This document shows positions 942 to 11,168 of a stretch of DNA of 64,000 nt, in pieces. Every line of letters begins with the position of its first letter. The first letter of the stretch is position 1. The position numbers and the translations under genes are program-made. This DNA is from Candidatus Multivoradales bacterium. Its GTDB lineage: Bacteria > Acidobacteriota > Thermoanaerobaculia > Multivoradales > J023. The stretch covers positions 128,001 to 192,000 of the forward strand of contig CBDFLE010000006.1 in assembly GCA_965248925.1 (NCBI GenBank), given 5' to 3'. The notes beneath the pieces are model-generated. The model was not told the DNA's origin, did not search any database, and was given only the letters and a program-made list of their open reading frames with translations.

Positions 942-3023
942 CTACTCGATCTCTGTATCGCCCCACGGGTAGTCGATCCGGGGCGGTGGCGGCTCCCCAC
1001 CTTCCCCTTGCAGATAGTGCTCCATCCAACGTAGCAATCGCAGAGTGTAATCGTAGCGTCCGGCAGCCTTGCGGTTGCCGTGGCCCTCGCCGGGATAAAA
1101 CACCAGGCGCACTGGCGTCTTGCCGTGAGTCTTGAGATGGCGATGCAGTTCCATCGACTGGCTGGGATGGACCCGTGGATCGTCTTCACCATGGAGGATC
1201 AAGATCGGCGTCCGGGCTTGCTCGACATAGTAGATCGGGCTGCGCTCTAGAAAGAGCTGCCAGTCATCCCACGGCCAGTGACGATCATGGACCAGGAAGA
1301 GCTCGCGCGGAATGTCAGAGGTTCCCAGCTTGGAGATTTTGTCCGAGATGCCGACAAACATCACCGCGGCGGCGAAACGCTCGGTGTAGTAAGTCGCCCC
1401 CCAGGCCGAGGCGTAGCCGCCGTAGGAGCCGCCGGTGATGCCGACCTTGTCCCGATCCACCAGGCCGGCCTGCACCAGATGGTCCACGCCATCCACCAAA
1501 TCGTCGAACTCCCTACCCGCTGGATCCCCCTGACTGAGCTTGGAGAAGGCCACTCCACGGCCGGTGGAGCCGCGATAATTAGGATAGAAAACGGCAAAAC
1601 CACGAGCCGCCAAGATCTGACCAGGGCGCGAATAGTTGGTCTGCCAGTCATTGGAGAAATGCGATTCAGGCCCGCCGTGAGCGATCAGCACCAGCGGGTA
1701 GCGCTGGCCGGCCTGCGAGTCGAGCGGGCGGATCAGAATGCCTTCGAGTTTCAAACCGTCGCGAGCCTGGTAGCGCACCACCTCCTGGCTCGCCATCCGC
1801 GCCTCGGCGAGCCATGGATTGCTATCCGTCAGACGGCGAACCGCGGACGAGTCGGCGGCGCTCCAAAACACCTCGGCCGGATGCTCGGGGGTCGAACCGA
1901 CCAACGCCAGAGCGCCGCCAGGGGCGACACTGATCTTTTTCCAGGCCGCCGCCGCGGCGACTCGGGCAACGGGCTCCACGTCACCGTCCAGGGCCACCAC
2001 TCCAAGCCGCTTTTCCACCCCCTGGTCGAGCAGGTAGACGATCCGGCTGGAGTTCTGCCAGGCGAGGTCGGTGACATGCCCTTTGACTCCGGGAAGCAGG
2101 TCGCGCAATTCGCCACCGCTGGCCGGCACCACCAGCAGACGCCCCTCCTTGGGATCATTGAGGTCGGCGGCCGAGATCATTGCCAAATAGCTGCCGTCCG
2201 GACCCCAGACGAGCTTGCCCAACTTGCCGGGGTTGGCAACCGAGACAACGCCAAGGGCAGCGCCATCTTCGGTCTCGGCCAAGTCGACAATCCGGATCTG
2301 CTTCCGCATGTAGGAATCGTCGACCAGTGGACTCGGTGCCACCACCACCGCCAGACGCTGGCCGTCAGGGCTCCAATAGACCTCGAATGCCGAGCCCTCG
2401 ACCGTGATCTGCCGCGGCGGGGCCTCGCTGCCAAGCTCACTCACCCACACCAGAGTAGGGCGCCAATCCTCCTCGAAGACCTTCTGATCGAAGCCTTTGT
2501 CGCGCAGCTCAGCGTGTTCAGCCGGCTCTTCGGCCGTGGCCAAGAAAGCCAGCTGGCGACCGTCGGGGCTCCAGCTGTAGGCCTTGATGCCCTCGCTGTG
2601 CTCGACCAAGCGCACTGCTTCGCCGCCGTCTACAGGAATCTCCCAGACCGCGTTCTCCTCGTCATCGTCACGCTTGGCGCGGAAGCTCAGCCGGCGACCG
2701 TCGGGGCTCCAGGCAAGATCCCGCACCTGCTGGTGTCCAGCGATGTAAGGACGGCTGGCGCCGTCACTGCCAACCACATGCAGTTCCCGCCAGGCACGGC
2801 CGTTGTCTTCGCTGAACGGATTGCGTGGCACCGACAAGACATAGGCTACCGCCTCACCCGACGGCGATATCACCGCTTCCTCTACCGTCCGCAAACGAGC
2901 AATATCTTCGGGCGCCATGCCGCGGTCAGCCGCTAGCAGCGGGTTGAACATCGCCATCGACCCGGCGATCGCTAGCAAAAATCCGCAGGTGATCCGGAAC
3001 GACGAGGTCGTCTGTCGCTGCAT
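942..3023 (-). CDS. Secreted S9 family peptidase (dipeptidyl aminopeptidase / acylaminoacyl peptidase)
   Basis: Signal peptide, WSPDG propeller repeats, HGGP, NYRGSTG, nucleophile GGSYGG, HGEDDPRV and EGHG. Confidence 0.92.
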   Translation of the reverse strand: MQRQTTSSFRITCGFLLAIAGSMAMFNPLLAADRGMAPEDIARLRTVEEAVISPSGEAVAYVLSVPRNPFSEDNGRAWRELHVVGSDGASRPYIAGHQQVRDLAWSPDGRRLSFRAKRDDDEENAVWEIPVDGGEAVRLVEHSEGIKAYSWSPDGRQLAFLATAEEPAEHAELRDKGFDQKVFEEDWRPTLVWVSELGSEAPPRQITVEGSAFEVYWSPDGQRLAVVVAPSPLVDDSYMRKQIRIVDLAETEDGAALGVVSVANPGKLGKLVWGPDGSYLAMISAADLNDPKEGRLLVVPASGGELRDLLPGVKGHVTDLAWQNSSRIVYLLDQGVEKRLGVVALDGDVEPVARVAAAAAWKKISVAPGGALALVGSTPEHPAEVFWSAADSSAVRRLTDSNPWLAEARMASQEVVRYQARDGLKLEGILIRPLDSQAGQRYPLVLIAHGGPESHFSNDWQTNYSRPGQILAARGFAVFYPNYRGSTGRGVAFSKLSQGDPAGREFDDLVDGVDHLVQAGLVDRDKVGITGGSYGGYASAWGATYYTERFAAAVMFVGISDKISKLGTSDIPRELFLVHDRHWPWDDWQLFLERSPIYYVEQARTPILILHGEDDPRVHPSQSMELHRHLKTHGKTPVRLVFYPGEGHGNRKAAGRYDYTLRLLRWMEHYLQGEGGEPPPPRIDYPWGDTEIE

Positions 3024-3245
3024 TTCTAGCTCCTGTGACTTGTGACTCGATGGGGTCGGATGAGAACATCCTAACCCAGCCTCCGTATCTTGCGAAGAGG
3101 CCGGCGAAGACCGCCACGAAAGCTGGTGGCCGCAGTCATCACCACCACCGAACCGGGGAGAAACCAGAGGTCCCGAAGAGCCGATCTTCGAACCCAGAAG
3201 CCGCTCAATTCAGCCCGTTTTTCTACACCTTTGGGGAGCGCCCCA

Positions 3246-4235
3246 ATGACCACTCTCGACCCTACCCACAAGCCAGCCGGGCAACTCGAAGGCTCGGTTT
3301 CCGACCCGACAGCCGCCCAGCGACCAAGCATGGCCAACAAGCCGCTCAGACTGCCCAACAAACCTGCCTTGCTGGCAACCAAGCCGGCGCGGCTGCCAAG
3401 TCAGGCCCCCGTATCGACCCGGCTGCCACCGGCGACCGATCTGCCCGTGGTTCAAGGCCGTCCCTTCGCCAAGCCCTTCCAGCTACCGCTGCGACCAGTG
3501 GCGGAAGCACGCGACCCGCAAAGCGGCGACGCCCTGGGCCATTTGGTCAGCCAAAGCCAAACGCCAGTGGCCGGCAAGCCAATGCGACGAGCGATTCTCA
3601 AGAGCCTACGCGGGGCGGGCGGCTGGCCAACAGGTTCGGCACCGACCAGCTGATCGAGCGCCTGGCTGCGGCCCGCAGCCGCTTGCGGGCCAAGATCTGG
3701 CGCCGGGCTTGCTCCGTGCTCTCTCCGGTCGCAATCGCGAACAACTTGCAGGCTTGCAGTGGGCCAACCTGCGAGACGGCCTGGATAAGGCCGGCGTCGA
3801 GCTGACGCCTACGGCCAGCAAAGTCGTCGACGCCTATCGCCAGCTAGCCAGCGACCTGCGCGACGATGGCCGCGTGGGCGCCACTCGCAAAGAGCTCAGG
3901 AGCCTGATTCGCAACCAGGAGGAGATTTTGTCGGCCAGCGGATTCGGCCGCGTCTCGACGCTGGTGCTAGCGCCGCCCTCGAAGGTTTCGACCAGCTGCC
4001 CCAGCCGGTCTCGGGGAGCGATTTGGCACAGCTCATCTACGCCGGCACCAACGACCGAGACGGCAATGTCCTCAACGAGTTCCGCACTTTCCGTCGGGGT
4101 CTGCGTCAACACCAGGACCAGCTCGATCCGCAGGCGCGGCAGGTCTTCGACGTATTGCGAAAATACGCCGCCGAAGTACGCCGCGGCGATGGCTTGCCCA
4201 GCGGGCGCTACGAGTCGTTCTTGGCCGACCTGGAA
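3246..4235 (+). pseudogene. Frameshifted hypothetical protein with a Pro-rich N-terminus and two helical repeats
   Basis: Coding-like sequence moves across frames (3090..3653, 3035..3805, 3709..4251, 4023..4430). Repeat units NLRDGLDKAGVELTPTASKVVDAYRQLA and TFRRGLRQHQDQLDPQARQVFDVLRKYA. Confidence 0.5.
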
Positions 4236-4760
4236 AAAGAGAGCAAGCTGATCTTGGCCCACCACTTGGGCCACCGCACGGCAGTCGACACCTCGTTCTT
4301 CATCGGCAAGCTCGACCGCGCGACCAAAGGCGGGTTCCAGCTCTCGACCGATGGTCTGGACTCCTACGCAGATACGGTAGTTCACCAGCTCGGCACCCGC
4401 GTTCAGTATGGTCAGATCATCGAGACCTAGGGCGCCGACTCCAAGGAAGATCAACGCCGGTACTCACCGGCGACGATAATAGCCAGTGAGAAGCGGGCCA
4501 TCCACGGCAAGCCCGACAAAGCCAAGATCTGCACCAGCCACATCGAGCGCCAGAATCTGAATCTGCGCATACGGATGCGCCGCCTGACACACTTGACCAA
4601 CGGCTTCTCCAAGAAGTGGGCGAACCTACGGGCAGCCGTGGCTCTTGAGATGGCCCACCACAACTTCTGCCGTATCCACGGCTCGCTGCGCTGCACCCCC
4701 GCAATGAAGGCTGATCTCTGCAAAGGGACCTGGTCGGTAAGCGATCTGGTGACGGCTTGA
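4236..4760 (+). mobile_element. IS1-family transposase remnant (5'-truncated, internal stop)
   Basis: KESKLILAHHLGHR...LSTDGLDSY...QYGQIIET*GADSKEDQRRYSP...ICTSHIERQNLNLRIRMRRLTHLTNGFSKK...HNFCRIHGSLRCTPAM; TAG at 4428-4430 where Tyr is usual. Confidence 0.85.
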
Positions 4761-4775: not shown

Positions 4776-5159
4776 CTAGGTCACCTGAGCTTTGATGAGA
4801 ATCCGTGTCGCACGAAGTAGTTTCACGCGCAACTCCGGCGCTTTCTTGCCTGAGACATCGGTGTGCGCGCGGTTTCCAATCTCTCGATCTGGAGTGTGAC
4901 AAACCTTGAGACCAGCGCTTCGTGCGTTGCCGGCGGCAAATTCGATCACCGCATTGTCTCGTGGCACCTTACCTCGAGCTAATGTCTCTGAAGGACTAGC
5001 GTACTTGCTCCAGTCTGTTGACATCGCACCTCCATGGTCACGAAACACACCGGGTAGGAGGTCACCACCCGAGAAGAAACCCCTGTGGGCGCGCATGAAC
5101 AGCATGTCCGGGTCCGGCACTTCCTCCGGTGCCCAGACGCCTATTTCTTTATCAGCCAA
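4776..5159 (-). CDS. Small hypothetical protein, putative ADP-ribosyltransferase-like (Tse2-type R/S/H) toxin fold
   Basis: 127 aa with R23 (LFMR), S47 (MSTDW), HTP...NRAH (H99); overlaps the upstream gene end. Confidence 0.55.
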   Translation of the reverse strand: MADKEIGVWAPEEVPDPDMLFMRAHRGFFSGGDLLPGVFRDHGGAMSTDWSKYASPSETLARGKVPRDNAVIEFAAGNARSAGLKVCHTPDREIGNRAHTDVSGKKAPELRVKLLRATRILIKAQVT

Positions 5160-5743
5160 TACAGCAATCCAGCAGTTGCGGCCGTTGGCTCAAGCGTGCC
5201 TTGAATCTTCTGGTTACCGTAGTCGTCTCCATAAAACTCAAGCGGTTCGGTATTTGCTTGTGGAACAGTAACCAGCAACTCAAAGCCCTTGGTCTTCCAA
5301 TACAGATCTACATTCCCTTCCGGGCCGGGTCCAAGTACCGGAGCTGGCATAGAGCGCCCCAGCTCTTCTCGGAATGCCTTCGCCTCAGCCCGGAGGAAGT
5401 TGGCAGCGCGTTCCCAGGTTTCGCGACGATAGCCCGGACTACCGGCACCGTCCCAGTCCGACTCAAGCCTGTAGATGTGGCGCGAGGATTCAATCTCCTC
5501 CTCAATACTCCTGGCCAGGTCCCGCTTCCTGTACGACTGCTCCGCTCTTCCGGCATCGAAAGAAAGTATCGAAGCAGCACTGTGCCCCAACTCAAAAGAA
5601 CTCTCTCCAAACGAGGAGTCTGGCTCGAACTTCGAAGGGCTCCATTGATCGATCGTCCGCGGCGTTCTTGGCGTATGACTCTGCCAATCGAGTGCGTGTC
5701 GTGCCGATCGACAAGTATCACCTTGAAGGGAATCAGTGCTCAT
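5141..5743 (-). CDS. Hypothetical protein with L..DWDG.G...P.L.PGPEG.V.L.W motif (putative antitoxin/partner)
   Basis: 200-aa ORF; ATGA overlap with the upstream gene. Confidence 0.65.
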   Translation of the reverse strand: MSTDSLQGDTCRSARHALDWQSHTPRTPRTIDQWSPSKFEPDSSFGESSFELGHSAASILSFDAGRAEQSYRKRDLARSIEEEIESSRHIYRLESDWDGAGSPGYRRETWERAANFLRAEAKAFREELGRSMPAPVLGPGPEGNVDLYWKTKGFELLVTVPQANTEPLEFYGDDYGNQKIQGTLEPTAATAGLLYWLIKK

Positions 5744-6393
5744 TCTGGCTCCAGCAATGTGAGATCGGTTCTCGCCGCGAATTCTCGGAGGCTTTCGTCC
5801 TTTCTCAAAGCGCGCTCGACGACCTGCGACAGGTCCTTGAGATCACTCCTCTTCAAACCGATGAAGATCTCCTGCACGTCCCGACCTTCGTGATAAACAA
5901 CGCGCATCGTGTGCATAATTAGGGCCGCCGTCGGCTGTTCCTCGGGCTCCCCAAAGGCTGGCCGCAAATCCGTAAAGATCTCAGAGGTACAGAGAGTATT
6001 TGCTTGGCGCCGGCGGAGACGGTACGCTTTTGACAACAAGCCAAGCGAAGAGTCGAGGGTAAAGAGGCGGTCAAAGAACCTCTCTAAGTTGTCCTGGTCT
6101 ACTATTGCTGAAGAAAGTCTTTCGTCTGACTCGATTGTATCCACGAGTTCAGAAGTGGTCAGTGTCTTGCTGGCGTGTGATTCATAGATACCCAGCAGCA
6201 TATAGAGAATGTCCGTTGCCTCCTCCAGGCCAACGCCAGCTGCTTGGGAGAGCGAGCCTTCTTTCCCGCCTGCGGCCAGGGCAGCGTCGTGTTCCTCGAC
6301 GCAGTCCAATAACGCAAATCGCTTTTCGCTATCTAGACCCACGAGGATCTGGAGCGGTTCTATGTGACTTGGTGGAATCCGCAATCTCGCCAT
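5740..6393 (-). CDS. COMMD-like protein (helical N-domain plus beta-beta-beta-alpha COMM-like C-domain)
   Basis: ATG at 6393 with GGAG RBS; 217 aa; C-terminus TLCTSEIFTDLRPAF / AALIMHTMRVVYH / QEIFIGL / RSDLKDLSQVVERALRK. The ORF is solid; the fold call is inferred. Confidence 0.6.
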   Translation of the reverse strand: MARLRIPPSHIEPLQILVGLDSEKRFALLDCVEEHDAALAAGGKEGSLSQAAGVGLEEATDILYMLLGIYESHASKTLTTSELVDTIESDERLSSAIVDQDNLERFFDRLFTLDSSLGLLSKAYRLRRRQANTLCTSEIFTDLRPAFGEPEEQPTAALIMHTMRVVYHEGRDVQEIFIGLKRSDLKDLSQVVERALRKDESLREFAARTDLTLLEPE

Positions 6394-6544
6394 CTCGATC
6401 AACTCCAGCAGGAATCGTGCCGTTCGCCGGTTTTCTCGGCTAGGCATCCACCGATTTGGTGCCATGGAAGCGGTAGCCAGCGCGGCGGGCCGAGCAACGG
6501 GGTGCCCGGCGTTCAGCGGCCGGACCTAGCCGCGCCTGAAGATT

Positions 6545-7246
6545 CTACCAGATGCCGCGCCGGGAGAGGAGAACCCAGCGGCCGAGCGCACCGACAATCA
6601 AGTGGTCCACTAGCTTGACGCCAATCAATTCGCTAGCCTCTGCCATCCGCTCGGTGAAGAGCAGATCCTCGTTGCTCGGCGACGGGTCGCCGCTGGCGTG
6701 GATGTGAAAGATGATCAGCTTCACGGCGTGGTGCTGGAATGCTTCGCTCAAGATCGGTCCAGGCTCAGCCGCTGCTCGGGTGGCTATGCCGCGGAAAATC
6801 TCGCGCGCGGCGATCAGCCGGTGGCGGCAGTCGAGGTAGATCGCGCCGAGAACCTGTTGGTCAAGCTCGCAGTACTTCATCGCCACGTACTCGGCCAGGG
6901 CTATCGGCTGATCGAGCAATCTGCGGCGGTCTAGCTGATGCTCGGCCAGCCGCCGCACAAGCTCACCAGCGGCCAGCACCACAGTTGCTCTCCCCTCGGT
7001 GGCACCGTTGCGGCGCAAGACTGGCCTGGCGGCGCGCAGCAAACCTCTCAGACCGCCAGCAGCCGACAGAAAGCGCTCTGCCACCTTCTCTGCCAACCGG
7101 TACCTCAGCTGCTCAACATCCGTCAGGACGGCCGCTCCGTGGCGTAGCAGCCGGTCGCGCATTGGCTGGTTCCTTTGCGTGGCTAGGCTCTGGCGCCGGT
7201 TGCCGCCGCCGTCAGAGCCGCTTGGTGGTAGGGTGGAGACGGTCAC
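6545..7246 (-). CDS. radC: RadC-family JAB domain protein (somewhat degenerate)
   Basis: MRDRLLRHGAAVLTDVE, YLDCRHRLI, HIHASGDPSPSNED...GVKLVDHLIVG. Confidence 0.85.
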   Translation of the reverse strand: MTVSTLPPSGSDGGGNRRQSLATQRNQPMRDRLLRHGAAVLTDVEQLRYRLAEKVAERFLSAAGGLRGLLRAARPVLRRNGATEGRATVVLAAGELVRRLAEHQLDRRRLLDQPIALAEYVAMKYCELDQQVLGAIYLDCRHRLIAAREIFRGIATRAAAEPGPILSEAFQHHAVKLIIFHIHASGDPSPSNEDLLFTERMAEASELIGVKLVDHLIVGALGRWVLLSRRGIW

Positions 7247-7456: not shown

Positions 7457-8479
7457 ATGAGCCGACCCTCCCCCATCCTCGCCCCTCCGCCACCGACCCA
7501 CTGGCCTCGCCGGCCGCGGCAGGTGAGCTTGGTATGCCCAGTCTTTCGCGAGGCCGAGGGCATCGCCACCTTCACTGCCGCCTTGCTGGCGGTGCTCGAT
7601 GAGCTGGGCTTTCCCTACGAGGTGATTTTCGTCGAAGACGACTCGCCGGACGACACTCTGGGGGAGCTGCGGCGGCTGCACGCCAAGCATGGCAATGTGC
7701 TCAAGGTGCTGTCGATGTCGCGTCGCTTTGGCCACCAGAGTTCACTCGCCGCCGGCCTGCGCTACGCCAGCGGCGAGGTGGTGATTTGCATGGATTCGGA
7801 CTTGCAACACCCGCCGGAGCTGATTCCGGAGATGCTGTGGCGCTGGGCCGGCGGTGATCAGTTGGTCTACACCCGGCGGCGCCATCAACGGGACCGCGGA
7901 CGGCTGAAGGAAACCGCCTCGCGGCTGTTCTACCGCCTGATGGACCGAGCTACCGATGTGCGCTTCGAGGAGGGCACCGCCGATTTCCGACTGATGGATC
8001 AGGTGGTGGTGGAGGCGCTCAATCGCTTCGGCGAACGCTTCTTGCTCTTCCGCGGTCTGGTCAGTTGGATCGGTTTCCGCCGCTCAGTGTTGGAGTACGA
8101 CGCTCCCCCTCGCTTTGCCGGCGAGAGCAGCTACACCTGGGGGCGAATGATGAAGATGGCTCTTGATGGGCTGTTTGCCTTCTCACTGCTGCCGCTGCGC
8201 TTCAGCTTCATCCTCGGCTTCGTCACCCTGCTGTGCTCCGGCGCCTATGGGCTGTATTCGATCATCATCCATCTCCTCGGCCGGGTCGAAGTCGAGGGCT
8301 ACACTTCGTTGGTGCTGCTGGTGCTGTTCCTCGGCAGCCTGAACCTACTCTGCCTGGGAATCGTCGGCGAGTATGTAGGCCGGATCCACGAGCAGGTCAA
8401 GGGGCGGCCATTGTACTTGGTGAAAGAGTGGGTGGGCTTCGAAGGCGACTCCCAACAACTGCCGAGGGAGCATTCTTGA
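7457..8479 (+). CDS. GT2 polyprenol-phosphate glycosyltransferase (GtrB/ArnC-like)
   Basis: VCPVFRE, VEDDSPD, SRRFGHQ, MDSDLQHPP, two C-terminal TM helices, GEYVGRI...RPLY. Confidence 0.92.
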   Translation: MSRPSPILAPPPPTHWPRRPRQVSLVCPVFREAEGIATFTAALLAVLDELGFPYEVIFVEDDSPDDTLGELRRLHAKHGNVLKVLSMSRRFGHQSSLAAGLRYASGEVVICMDSDLQHPPELIPEMLWRWAGGDQLVYTRRRHQRDRGRLKETASRLFYRLMDRATDVRFEEGTADFRLMDQVVVEALNRFGERFLLFRGLVSWIGFRRSVLEYDAPPRFAGESSYTWGRMMKMALDGLFAFSLLPLRFSFILGFVTLLCSGAYGLYSIIIHLLGRVEVEGYTSLVLLVLFLGSLNLLCLGIVGEYVGRIHEQVKGRPLYLVKEWVGFEGDSQQLPREHS

Positions 8480-9462
8480 GCGCTCCTCACCAGGTCTTGG
8501 TCACCGGCGCTGGCGGCTTTATCGGCAGCCATCTGTGCGAAGCGCTGCTCACGGCTGGCCACCAGGTTCGCGCTTTGGTGCGCTACACCTCGCACGGTGG
8601 CAGCGGTTGGCTGGCCGAGGTGCCACCCTACCTCGCCGACGGGTTGGAAGTCTTCTACGGCGATATCCGCGACAGCCGAGCGGTGCGCGAAGCGGTCAGC
8701 GGCTGTCAGACGATTTTCCATCTGGCGGCGCTGATCGGCATTCCCTACTCCTACCGCGCGCCTCGTTCCTATGTCGAAGTCAATATCGGCGGCACTCTCA
8801 ATGTGCTCGAAGCGGCTCGCGATCTGCAAGTCGGCAGAACACTGGTGACCAGCACTAGTGAAGTCTACGGTAGTGCCCAATACACCCCCATTGACGAACG
8901 CCATCCGCTGCAAGGTCAGTCGCCCTATTCGGCGTCGAAGATCGGCGCCGACCACCTGGCGGAGAGCTACCACCGCTCCTTCGACCTGCCGGTGGCAATC
9001 GTCCGACCCTTCAACACTTATGGTCCCAGGCAGAGCGCGCGGGCGATCATCCCGACCATCCTCAGCCAGGCGCTGAGCGGCGACTCGCTGCACCTGGGCA
9101 ACTTGGAACCGGTGCGGGATCTGGTTTTCGTCGAGGATACCGCCGCTGGCTTCCTCGCCCTGGCCGCCGCCGACGACGCCCTCGGGGTGGCGACCAACCT
9201 GGCCACCGGCAGCGGCGTGTCGATCGCTGAGCTGGTCGATAAAGTGAGGCAGCTGCTCGGCAAGGAATTACCGGTACGAGGCGAGGCGAGGCGGCGGCGA
9301 CCGGACTCGAGCGAAGTCTTCAAACTGATCGGCAGCACCGAATGCGCCGCGCAGCGAGCCAGCTGGCATTCGCGAGTCGATCTCGACCAAGGCCTGGAGC
9401 GCACTCTGGCCTGGGTTCGCGACCATCTGGACCAATTCGATGTGCAAACCTACAGCGTCTGA
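8476..9462 (+). CDS. NAD-dependent nucleotide-sugar 4,6-dehydratase/epimerase (LegB-like)
   Basis: TTG start overlapping the GT2 stop; VTGAGGFIGSH, HLAALIGIPYSY, TSTSEVYG, YSASK, RPFNTYGPRQS. Confidence 0.9.
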   Translation: MSAPHQVLVTGAGGFIGSHLCEALLTAGHQVRALVRYTSHGGSGWLAEVPPYLADGLEVFYGDIRDSRAVREAVSGCQTIFHLAALIGIPYSYRAPRSYVEVNIGGTLNVLEAARDLQVGRTLVTSTSEVYGSAQYTPIDERHPLQGQSPYSASKIGADHLAESYHRSFDLPVAIVRPFNTYGPRQSARAIIPTILSQALSGDSLHLGNLEPVRDLVFVEDTAAGFLALAAADDALGVATNLATGSGVSIAELVDKVRQLLGKELPVRGEARRRRPDSSEVFKLIGSTECAAQRASWHSRVDLDQGLERTLAWVRDHLDQFDVQTYSV

Positions 9463-9501
9463 GTCCCAGGCAGCCAGAGCCAAAGCGACAGGAGGCAGCC
9501 G

Positions 9502-10251
9502 ATGCGCGCGGTGATCCTGGCTGGTGGCCGAGGAACCCGACTGGCGCCCTACACCACGGTCATTCCGAAACCCCTGCTGCCGGTGGGGGAAACGCCGATC
9601 CTGGAAATCGTGCTGCGCCAACTGGCCGCCGCCGGTTTCGATCACATCACTCTCACCTTGGGATGGATGGCCGCCTACTTCCGCACTTTTATCGACCAAC
9701 GATCCGACCTGCGCCGGCTGGCTCGAATCGATTTCATCGAGGAGCTGCAACCCACTGGTACCGCCGGCAGCCTGGCCTCGGTCGAGGGGCTCAGAGACGG
9801 CCCTTTCCTGGTGATGAACGGGGACTTGCTGACCACTCTTGACTACGCGGCACTGATTGATTTCCACCTCCGTCGCCAGGCCGAGCTGACCATCGCCCTG
9901 CACCAGAAGCCGGTACCGATCGATCTCGGGGTGGTCGAGACCGCCAGCGACGGCGAGCGGGTCACCGGCTACGTCGAGAAGCCGACTTTGCGCTACACCG
10001 TCAGCATGGGGGTCTACATCTACAATCCCAGCGTGCTGGATGAGATTGTCCCCGGCCAGTACCTTGATTTTCCCAGTCTCGCGCTGCGCCTGATCGACCA
10101 GGGACGAGCCGTCTTCGGCTATCCCAACGACGCCTACTGGCTCGATCTCGGCCGCCCAGAGGATCTCGAACTGGCGCAGCAGATCTTCGCCGAGCGCGGC
10201 GATGAGTTCTTGCCCCCGAACACCGGACCGGCAGCGGAAGCAAGCAAGTGA
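9502..10251 (+). CDS. Sugar-phosphate nucleotidyltransferase
   Basis: ILAGGRGTRL..PKPL, GTAG, NGDLLT, EKP, WLDLG. Confidence 0.92.
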   Translation: MRAVILAGGRGTRLAPYTTVIPKPLLPVGETPILEIVLRQLAAAGFDHITLTLGWMAAYFRTFIDQRSDLRRLARIDFIEELQPTGTAGSLASVEGLRDGPFLVMNGDLLTTLDYAALIDFHLRRQAELTIALHQKPVPIDLGVVETASDGERVTGYVEKPTLRYTVSMGVYIYNPSVLDEIVPGQYLDFPSLALRLIDQGRAVFGYPNDAYWLDLGRPEDLELAQQIFAERGDEFLPPNTGPAAEASK

Positions 10252-11168
10252 GCCGGGTCCTGGTTCTGGCGGCGAATTCATTCGTCGGCCGTTGGCTGGT
10301 GCGCGAACTCGGCGCGCGCGGCCATCAGCTGATTACCGCCGCGCGCTCCGACGACGCTGATCTGCGTTGTGACTTGGGCCGCGCTGAAGAAGTCATGGCA
10401 GCGGTCAGCAGCAGCCACCCCGAGTGCATTGTCAACTGCGCTGGCGCCACCACTCGGCGCGATCCTGAAACCCTCTACAACGTCCATCTGGGCGGTGCTC
10501 ACCGGCTGCTCGAAGCGGTGCGTGAAGCGGCGCCGGCAGCATTGACGATTTTTCTCGGCAGCGCCGCTGAGTATGGTCCGGTGTCAGCCGAGGAGCTGCC
10601 GATCTCGGAGCAGCTGGAGGCGCGGCCGGCAGGGTTCTTCGGCGCCAGCAAGCTAGCCCAAACCCAACTCGCCCAAGCCGCCGCCGTGGAGTGGGGCCTC
10701 TCGAGCCTGGTACTGCGGCCGTTCAACATTCTGGGTCCAGGAACGCCCGCGCACTACCTCCCAGGCGCCCTGGCAAGCCGTTTGCGTCGGCGCCTGGCCG
10801 AAGGCCGTCTCAAGGCTCCGCTAGCGCTGGTCAACGGCGCCGCCAGCCGCGATTTTATCGATGTTCGAGATGTTGCCAACGCCACCGCCGACCTGCTTGA
10901 GCACCACCTGCCCAAGGCTGCCCCGCAGTGCGAGATCTACAACATCGCCAGCGGTAGTGAGACCACCGTGCTCGACCTCGCCCAAGGTCTCAGCTCCCTG
11001 GCCATCCCCGGCCTGCGAGTCGTCGACGCGGGCGTCGCAGAGGGGCGCAGCAGCGTCTTCCGCAGCCGGGCGCGGATCGGCAAGCTGAGCCAAGCCACTG
11101 GCTGGCGAGCGCAACTCACCCTCGATACTAGCCTACGCGATCTGTGGTGTTCGAGCGCTGCGCTGTAG
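10248..11168 (+). CDS. Extended SDR, Rmd-like nucleotide-sugar reductase homolog with altered catalytic motifs
   Basis: GSAAEYG, RPFNILGPG, RDFIDVRDVA, YNIASG; but AANSFVG and FGASK. Confidence 0.8.
   Translation: MSRVLVLAANSFVGRWLVRELGARGHQLITAARSDDADLRCDLGRAEEVMAAVSSSHPECIVNCAGATTRRDPETLYNVHLGGAHRLLEAVREAAPAALTIFLGSAAEYGPVSAEELPISEQLEARPAGFFGASKLAQTQLAQAAAVEWGLSSLVLRPFNILGPGTPAHYLPGALASRLRRRLAEGRLKAPLALVNGAASRDFIDVRDVANATADLLEHHLPKAAPQCEIYNIASGSETTVLDLAQGLSSLAIPGLRVVDAGVAEGRSSVFRSRARIGKLSQATGWRAQLTLDTSLRDLWCSSAAL

Follow-up and report, generated by a model that had tools for sequence, protein, structure and literature searches.

The DNA analysed here, called the window throughout, is a 64,000-nucleotide stretch (positions 128,001 to 192,000) of contig CBDFLE010000006.1 from Candidatus Multivoradales bacterium (Acidobacteriota; assembly GCA_965248925.1), and its subject is an operon of three minus-strand genes, designated G1, G2 and G3. 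G1 encodes a true bacterial COMMD-like protein, G3 a small putative toxin whose model is read as an ADP-ribosyltransferase (ART) superfamily fold, and G2 a protein whose C-terminal domain is predicted to bind G3 over its putative active cleft. The best reading, given about even odds, is that the locus is a small, horizontally spread, tripartite toxin–antitoxin-like module with a chaperone-like third component. In loci of this kind the G2–G3 pair is the conserved core, and the place upstream of it is taken by any of several interchangeable genes, among them the COMMD-like gene.

The features of the operon and of its surroundings are listed in Table 1. Tight coupling of the three genes, through an ATGA overlap and a 19-nt overlap, had been described in an earlier reading of the sequence (the original prediction) together with a higher AT content than the flanks, and both descriptions hold: the open reading frame (ORF) coordinates agree with the sequence, and the GC profile agrees with the values for the single genes. 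The GC content of G1, G2 and G3 was 0.54-0.56, against 0.63 across the window, and in 400-nt windows it was 0.525-0.575 at the operon and 0.62-0.68 in the flanks. The start of G1 was placed at 6393, where the homolog P0116 begins at the aligned Met and from where the product has the length of the database protein P0114 (likewise 217 aa). The TTG start of G3 is favoured by W9, E12 and P15, which are conserved N-terminally in homologs. The predicted isoelectric points were 9.25 for G3 (basic), 5.2 for G2 (acidic) and 4.8 for G1 (acidic).

Table 1. Coordinates of the operon, its parts and its neighbours (positions are those of the window).
Feature	Position	Strand	Description
G1	5740..6393	minus	217 aa from ATG at 6393; COMMD-like; frame open to 6465 (5740..6465 = 241 aa)
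G1 stop/G2 start overlap	5740..5743	minus	4 nt, ATGA
G2	5141..5743	minus	200 aa; stop codon 5141-5143
G2 N-terminal tail	5546..5743	minus	residues 1-66; not conserved in sequence; Trp at 20 and 34
G2 conserved C-terminal domain	5144..5530	minus	residues 72-200 (about 125); predicted G3-binding, antitoxin-like
G2 end/G3 start overlap	5141..5159	minus	19 nt, at the TTG start of G3
G3	4776..5159	minus	127 aa, TTG start; putative toxin, ART-superfamily fold
IS1-family transposase gene remnant	4240..4757 (approximate)	plus	C-terminal part, frame broken; ends 19 nt from the G3 stop
RadC-like JAB gene	6545..7246	minus	directly upstream of G1, same strand; PF04002, E=1.2e-28
Family-2 glycosyltransferase	first gene of flank 7457-11168		beyond radC; library match
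S9 prolyl-oligopeptidase-type protein	942-3023		opposite flank; library match

G1 was modelled with AlphaFold2 (AF2) at a mean predicted local distance difference test score (pLDDT) of 84.3. The model consists of helices at residues 8-131, three strands at 134-146, 156-169 and 172-180, and a helix at 182-209, that is, a helical HN-like domain (8-131) followed by a COMM-like beta-beta-beta-alpha domain (134-209), the architecture of prokaryotic COMMD-like proteins. A Foldseek search with the model returned as its top match 9q6a, the octameric COMMD-like protein MBK5214510 from a Flavobacteriaceae bacterium (E=1.6e-8, chain 9q6a_B), followed by chains of the human COMMD ring (E 3.6e-7 to 2e-5), with 18 matches at E<=0.001. 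A 13-sequence G1 alignment (A6) was built with two homologs from a word-indexed protein search and ten recovered from loci; its profile matched 9q6a_A among the PDB sequences at E=3.2e-34 over profile positions 2-215, nearly the full length. Because of this near full-length match G1 is placed in the same subfamily as the crystallised MBK5214510. The secondary structure, size and architecture from which a likeness to COMMD proteins had been proposed were thus borne out by the model, the profile and the Foldseek check. G1 had no match in Pfam or NCBIfam. Weak second-tier Foldseek and hidden Markov model matches of its N-terminal half to the DNA-binding proteins ParB, Rok and MogR and to TetR-like proteins (E 0.04-0.5) were not significant. 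COMMD-like proteins of this family are sparse: when 401 genomes per phylum were searched with the G1 profile, three phyla gave 7, 7 and 5 genomes with a match (each centre genome counted), and among Acidobacteriota, the phylum of the window, the 7 of 401 genomes included none of the listed genomes of the same order.

The accessible text of the structural study reports that MBK5214510 assembles as homo-octamers and decamers (Liu et al., Nat Commun 2026, PMC13392464; PDB 9q6a/9q6c/9q6d) and describes the role that prokaryotic COMMD-like proteins play as unknown or obscure; the accessible part of a follow-up preprint likewise terms the bacterial function unknown. Only for Myxococcota (beside type VI-like genes), Chlamydia and Haloarcula does the accessible text of PMC13392464 cover gene context. 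Its main text, in accessible form, nowhere uses operon, toxin, ADP-ribos, phage, immun or defence, and supplementary neighbourhood data could exist. G1 shares with the proteins of that study the HN and COMM architecture, the sequence relationship to MBK5214510 and the structural match to human COMMD subunits; it differs from the cases in the accessible text in that its gene heads three-gene operons with toxin-like effectors.

The AF2 model of G3 had a pLDDT of 93.6 and was compared with known structures using VIA-align and Foldseek. The top VIA-align match was KptA (Z 8.7, root-mean-square deviation 3.8 Å, 101 residues aligned, chain residues 54-180 of 9ld3_A), followed by AvrPphF (6.8), Tpt1 (6.5), a Vibrio toxin (5.6), DarT (5.5), Tse2 (5.4) and diphtheria toxin (5.3). 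The Rhs toxins TreTu and TreX were in the list at Z 5.1-5.2, and RES-type toxins, MbcT, Tne2 and SPN at Z 3.2-5.6. By title, at least 35 of the 50 rows listed were ARTs, PARP domains, NAD+-consuming toxins or Tpt1/KptA, and 13 chains reached Z>=5; the top eight Foldseek rows were all Tpt1/KptA, at E 0.1-0.3. An ART-like fold had been anticipated for G3, and Tpt1/KptA, DarT, Tse2 and diphtheria toxin do fill the list. Because the structural hit list is uniformly ART-like, the clear reading of the model is an ART-superfamily fold, a reading that rests on this uniformity, with no single score decisive. The proposal that R23, S47 and H99 stand in ART-like order fits the model by strand order, not by superposition: the three residues (with D101 after H99) lie on model strands 1, 2 and 5, as in the ART triads H-Y-[EDQ] and R-S-E. 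S47 and H99 do not vary among the homologs, at least 90% of which retain R23, and the canonical Glu is missing from the third position. Tse2, the R-S-H toxin with which G3 had been compared, is a middling fold match only.

The G3 family is large. Among 118 candidates, 113 homologs were found at E<=0.001, and a profile of 104 homologs, run against 1.84 billion representatives (50% identity), matched 1519 representative clusters at E<=0.001, of which 910 reached 1e-10. All but two of the best 150 relatives were stand-alone proteins, of 108-177 aa (148/150). Over the 104 homologs the columns F39, M46, S47, W50, H88 and H99 are invariant, and R23, H25, R62, R80, N96, R97, A98 and R111 are at least 90% conserved. 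G3 had no Pfam match at E<=1 and none in NCBIfam, and 0 of the 104 family members matched any Pfam family. The search of the G3 profile against PDB sequences gave one chance-level match, to a baseplate protein (E=0.21). The nearest clusters in the ESM Atlas were unnamed, and the nearest named one, DUF6098 (0.93, 173 shared features), is a lead only. Judged by the model and these searches, G3 is the founder of an unannotated, widespread family of ART-fold proteins of about 125 aa outside Pfam.

Tpt1/KptA is a two-lobed enzyme whose N-terminal winged-helix RNA lobe carries part of the Arg-His-Arg-Arg tetrad. G3 resembles the NAD+-binding ART lobe of this enzyme, its best fold match, and differs from it in lacking the N-terminal RNA lobe and any sequence similarity and in its toxin–antitoxin-like operon context. 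The assignment of G3 to the Tpt1/KptA family itself (PF01885) was considered and rejected on these grounds: a single lobe of 127 aa, with no similarity in sequence and no Pfam match. With the toxins of DarT-DarG, ParT-ParS, RES-Xre, MbcT-MbcA and Tse2-Tsi2 (fold-list Z 3.2-5.6), G3 shares a small ART fold and a neighbouring gene whose product would neutralise it; it differs from them in having no sequence relationship (no Pfam or PADLOC match), and the G2 domain is unrelated to macrodomains, Xre or the other named antitoxins. ParS-ParT and Xre-RES are ART pairs in which the antitoxin gene lies upstream.

The G2–G3 pair was followed through 33 loci, retrieved by two peptide patterns of G3 and distributed over Planctomycetota, Acidobacteriota, Chloroflexota, Nitrospirota, Bacteroidota, Pseudomonadota and other phyla. 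In 32 of the 33 the gene immediately upstream of G3 was a G2 homolog, and the remaining locus has only 13 nt of upstream sequence. In these 32 the G2 and G3 ORFs, each read from its first start codon, overlapped in 30, by 4-31 nt in 26. The two small genes are thus conserved as a pair, co-oriented and coupled, as in type II toxin–antitoxin modules, and the gene-neighbourhood check that had been proposed for the operon gave co-occurring homologs for this part of it. Two of the best 150 G3 relatives, P0126 (370 aa) and P0185 (304 aa), carry G2 and G3 in one protein; they could be genuine fusions, or gene calls in which a frameshift bridges the usual overlap.

Conservation in the G2 alignment (A7, 34 sequences) is absent before about residue 72, and the domain that follows carries the motifs D-W-D-x-x-G, P-G-P-x-G-S-x-D and F-Y-G-D. 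G2 had no match in Pfam, NCBIfam or PHROGs, the 34 members had no domain-wide Pfam family, and a search of the G2 profile against PDB sequences gave no match at E<=10. In the ESM Atlas the nearest clusters were unnamed and the nearest named ones, AF2212-like (0.81) and Atu0565 (0.79), are leads only. The PADLOC profile PDC-M32A was matched in part by 25 of the 34 members (best E=4.4e-7, about 266-341 of 375 profile positions). The C-terminal domain of G2 therefore resembles a sub-region of PDC-M32A; the two differ in that only this sub-domain is in common, and G1 and G3 have no PADLOC match. One of the 34 members matched DUF2281 (E=7.9e-6); it is probably that of L028 (491-1123), and the match likely lies in the N-terminal tail. 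DUF2281 is antitoxin-associated.

Complex prediction with G2 residues 72-200 and G3 gave an ipSAE of 0.86, the best control giving 0.00. Among solved complexes 116 of 157 attain this level, and among mismatched pairs 2 of 215, counts that hold only roughly (own alignments). Three runs shared at least 95% of the contacts, and the partner pLDDT was at least 89. On the G3 side the predicted interface comprises R23, H25, R40, S47 and R111, and on the G2 side the conserved motifs at 97-102, 136-142 and 169-173. The multimer prediction suggested earlier as a check was thereby positive for the G2–G3 complex. The model predicts that the C-terminal domain of G2 binds G3 over its putative active cleft, and by the comparisons of sequence this domain is a second family undescribed by Pfam and a dedicated partner of G3.

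The gene upstream of the pair varies (Table 2). Besides the COMMD-like gene it may be a member of a family of 221-227 aa (family b), a TIGR04255 gene or another small coupled ORF. Family b was tried as a COMMD-like candidate and found to be unrelated (hhalign against the COMMD-like alignment, probability 0.5%). The TIGR04255 proteins, at L005 651-1391 and L017 1638-2384 (E=4e-37 and 1.5e-43), overlap the G2 start, which suggests that they play a part like that of the COMMD-like gene. Two of the five larger upstream ORFs belong to housekeeping enzyme families, one has a weak helicase domain and two have no match. The only defence-like large neighbour seen lies upstream of G2–G3 at L006 16-2889; it is 957 aa long and has a Schlafen AlbA_2 domain and, as a weak match, a PHP domain.

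The operon was also surveyed from its other end. The G1 profile was run against 401 genomes in each of three phyla and yielded 16 new COMMD-like loci, chosen independently of G3. In 15 of these the COMMD-like gene is followed by two small co-oriented ORFs, and in the sixteenth (L041, itself a weak partial match to the G1 profile) by an effector gene only. The downstream genes vary as the upstream genes do (Table 2), and module swapping is therefore seen on both sides. The DUF7689 proteins are of 122-170 aa; in four of their five loci (not L041) they are preceded by a middle gene of 148-189 aa without a Pfam family, and they carry N-C-x-A-W-A and a later His motif, by inspection like a cysteine-histidine enzyme. 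In the two loci with a protease-motif protein (L036 2180-3220, L039 410-1513) a weak DUF5678 match was found in the L036 middle protein only and none in its L039 counterpart; the last proteins, of about 150 aa with D-T-G, were assigned in L036 from weak aspartyl-protease Pfam matches below cutoff and in L039 by inspection. The three loci without a known family (L058-L060, from the phylum of L009) have a middle protein of 234-256 aa and a last protein of 220-246 aa with a conserved G-L-[TS]-C, one of which matches phrog_11836 (E=9.3e-8), a family of no described function.

Table 2. Genes upstream of G2–G3 in the 33 loci found with G3 patterns, and genes downstream of the COMMD-like gene in the 16 loci found with the G1 profile.
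Gene class	Loci	Locus handles
Upstream: COMMD-like	10/33	L002, L004, L009, L010, L012, L013, L020, L029, L031, L032
Upstream: family b, 221-227 aa	5/33	L014, L023-L026
Upstream: TIGR04255	2/33	L005, L017
Upstream: other small coupled ORFs	4/33	L003, L006, L016, L033
Upstream: larger ORF, 17-96 nt gap	5/33	L011, L019, L021, L022, L034
Upstream: nothing	2/33	L007, L015
Upstream: too little sequence	5/33	L008, L018, L027, L028, L030
Downstream: G2–G3	6/16	L037, L043, L044, L046, L048, L057
Downstream: DUF7689 (PF24738) last	5/16	L038, L040, L041, L045, L047
Downstream: DUF5678-like middle gene and D-T-G aspartyl-protease-motif protein	2/16	L036, L039
Downstream: 220-246 aa pair, no known family	3/16	L058-L060

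The N-terminal tails of G2 differ with the upstream gene. As a lead and not a statistic, tails beside COMMD-like genes contained 39 Trp in 1238 residues (3.2%), with Trp in 16 of 17 tails, and other G2 tails 8 Trp in 1111 residues (0.7%), with Trp in 5 of 19. In the COMMD-associated tails the first Trp was at 15-24 in 12 of 17, and a second followed 9-14 residues on in 11 of 17; the middle proteins of COMMD operons with other effectors had Trp at 18-20 in 4 of 9. The family-b-associated tails share another short motif. We propose that the G2 N-terminal tail may be a docking element for the upstream protein, and the Trp pattern in these sequences is as would be expected for that.

The module may work as follows. 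G3 would be the effector, a minimal ART-fold enzyme, most likely NAD+-using, that ADP-ribosylates nucleic acid or another essential target or degrades NAD+. G2 would be the neutraliser, its C-terminal domain covering the G3 cleft with R23, H25 and S47. The COMMD-like G1, a homo-oligomeric ring if it follows its solved relative, would be the third component and would hold the variable, Trp-rich N-terminal tail of G2, by analogy with toxin–antitoxin–chaperone (TAC) systems. In this way G1 would stabilise or sequester G2–G3 until a trigger, probably phage infection, frees G3. A three-component toxin–antitoxin or anti-phage system was the central proposal of the original prediction; gene coupling, the predicted G2–G3 binding, the charge pattern and the sporadic distribution agree with it, and the part that did not stand is the place of the COMMD-like gene, which is not core to the pair (10 of 33 loci).

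The accessible parts of two accounts of TAC systems describe a SecB-like oligomer that protects the antitoxin by holding its tail, which bears an aromatic pattern, a phage protein that competes for the chaperone so that the antitoxin is degraded and the toxin freed, the mRNA ADP-ribosyltransferase CmdT as the toxin of CmdTAC, and modules that can be recombined (PMC11618068; 10.1101/2024.02.24.581848); the CmdT triad is given as H-Y-[EDQ] (PMC11618068). As far as these parts go, the operon resembles TAC and CmdTAC in its three components, its presumably oligomeric third protein and the poorly conserved tail of the putative antitoxin, and a chaperone-like role of G1 would follow by analogy. The third component is, however, COMMD-like and not SecB-like, and has no Pfam or NCBIfam match; the G2 tail is N-terminal and the TAC tail C-terminal, with the gene order C-A-T here; and G3, without a PADLOC match, has R/S/H-type residues in place of the CmdT triad.

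Several observations weigh against the tripartite module as proposed. At least 7 of the 33 G2–G3 loci lack a coupled small upstream gene, and G1 is therefore dispensable for the pair. A promoter scan found no promoter-like site in the 151-nt gap between radC and G1, and the three sites that it did find are all inside genes. According to the accessible text of PMC13392464, AlphaFold gave no complex of a COMMD-like protein with its neighbours in Myxococcota, Chlamydia or Haloarcula, where the COMMD-like proteins are of other subfamilies. The Trp pattern assumes the first start codon of each ORF and comes from sequences that are related and not independent. For G3, Foldseek gave no match at E<=0.001, and the KptA Z of 8.7 is close to the usual best score of models lacking a clear match, for which a best Z of 7-8 is common. 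The third triad position of G3 is H or D and not the canonical E/Q, and its chemistry may therefore not be ADP-ribosylation. G1 and G3 had no match in PADLOC, and none of the three proteins had one in PHROGs. Among viral contigs, only one carried G2–G3 (a single true relative among 25 pattern matches), and these contigs gave no sign of a phage-borne family. This viral relative (L064, 88.8 kb, 2473-4483) has G2 and G3 after a coupled 287-aa ORF without a Pfam match.

Of the other explanations, the strongest keeps the same architecture and changes only the chemistry: G3 would be an NAD+ glycohydrolase or phosphorylase that depletes NAD+, like RES/MbcT and Tne2, and not a transferase. This is a serious minority view, consistent with the RES-type toxins, MbcT, Tne2 and SPN in the fold list and with the replacement of the transferase-typical acidic catalytic residue by His or Asp in the G3 family; the nucleic-acid-directed ARTs KptA/Tpt1 and DarT nevertheless outscore the NADases, and this is the only discriminating evidence.

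Somewhat less probable, and on the unlikely side, is an ordinary two-gene type II toxin–antitoxin pair of G2 and G3 whose upstream gene is a transcriptional regulator or a hitch-hiker and not a physical partner. The omega gene of omega-epsilon-zeta is an example of such an upstream regulator. The loci without a coupled small upstream gene, the unrelated families in the upstream slot and the matches of the G1 N-terminal half to ParB, TetR-like proteins, Rok and MogR can all be read in this way, but those DNA-binding matches are not significant, and a pure DNA-binding regulator would not explain why the G2 tails change along with the upstream gene's family. COMMD-like genes moreover head three-gene operons with four unrelated effector types. 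Surface residues for DNA or RNA binding are apparently absent from COMMD-like proteins, according to the accessible Discussion of PMC13392464.

It is improbable that G3 is a housekeeping or repair enzyme related to Tpt1/KptA, removing or capping nucleic-acid phosphates with NAD+, and that G1 and G2 are its regulatory or targeting subunits. Such an enzyme would fit the rank of KptA/Tpt1 as best structural match (Z 8.7; top eight of eight Foldseek rows), and the many conserved Arg and His residues and the isoelectric point of 9.25 would suit phosphate or nucleic-acid binding. The missing Tpt1 lobe and the lack of similarity at the sequence level speak against it, as do the sparse occurrence of the COMMD-like gene of the operon in its phylum and order, the atypical GC content, the insertion sequence remnant abutting the operon and the predicted position of G2 over the G3 cleft. 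Sister operons, in addition, hold DUF7689 (a cysteine enzyme by inspection) or retropepsin-like proteins in the slot of G3.

Least probable of all is an interbacterial effector–immunity pair of the Tse2/Tsi2 type, with G3 as secreted effector, G2 as immunity protein and the COMMD-like ring as loading adaptor for a secretion apparatus: the fold matches to Tse2 (Z 5.4) and TreTu/TreX point that way, but there are no secretion genes beside the examined loci, whose annotated flanks are housekeeping (metH, glutamine synthetase, cstA, dehydrogenase), G3 lacks a delivery domain and nearly all of its best relatives are stand-alone proteins, and a protective gene upstream of and overlapping the effector gene is the usual type II toxin–antitoxin order.

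The operon lies, as originally described, between an IS1 remnant and radC. With 83% identity the remnant aligns to part of a transposase gene of 341 aa at another place in the genome (G000:C6:2510891-2511408), the product of which matches Pfam DDE_Tnp_IS1 (PF03400) with 33.2 bits at a cutoff of 24.1. The 8.0-Mb genome holds 12 RadC-like matches at E<=1e-20, among them the gene beside the operon, assigned by its PF04002 match, which is therefore not simply the housekeeping copy; a genome of the same family (G1606) has 12 such matches too. The closest paralogue of the gene beside the operon is 88% identical and lies beside the other IS1-family copy (G000:C6:2508152-2513896), with a different 359-aa ORF in between. 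This looks like a repeated arrangement of radC, cargo and IS1. Beyond radC, the glycosyltransferase is followed in the rest of the flank (7457-11168) by epimerase-like and nucleotidyl-transferase-like ORFs, named by reading the ORFs only, and the flank reads like a polysaccharide-synthesis cluster. The defence-island context that had been suggested was not upheld: with polysaccharide-synthesis genes on one side and an S9 peptidase on the other, this is no classical defence island.

A literature search found no link between COMMD-like proteins and toxin–antitoxin or defence operons, and the supplements of PMC13392464 could hold neighbourhood data; it gave nothing relevant on DUF7689 or TIGR04255 and no description of PDC-M32 function. 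The tripartite toxin–antitoxin-like module is a known kind of system, and what is new is that all three parts lie outside described families. A wider proposal, which we regard as tentative and rather doubtful, is that COMMD-like rings serve as general hubs for a polymorphic system of immunity or conflict, docking interchangeable adaptor–effector pairs via Trp-bearing N-terminal tails and releasing them upon a trigger, and that the eukaryotic COMMD ring of Commander descended from a prokaryotic defence scaffold. The effectors of such hubs would be the ART-fold enzyme, the DUF7689 protein (a cysteine enzyme by inspection only), the retropepsin-like protease and others. The COMMD ring of Commander clamps N-terminal peptides of partner proteins.

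The locus and its relatives provide a first functional context for bacterial COMMD-like proteins, one that is concrete and testable and that concerns the crystallised subfamily. The COMMD-like gene is the head of small three-gene operons ending in a toxin-like enzyme, which addresses the question of function left open in the accessible text of PMC13392464. The combinatorial swapping of upstream genes and of effector pairs is typical of TAC and other defence systems. Should the COMMD-like ring prove to be a chaperone or a sensor, the TAC design would have a second solution, unrelated to the first, and a further eukaryotic trafficking or signalling scaffold would be rooted in prokaryotic conflict systems.

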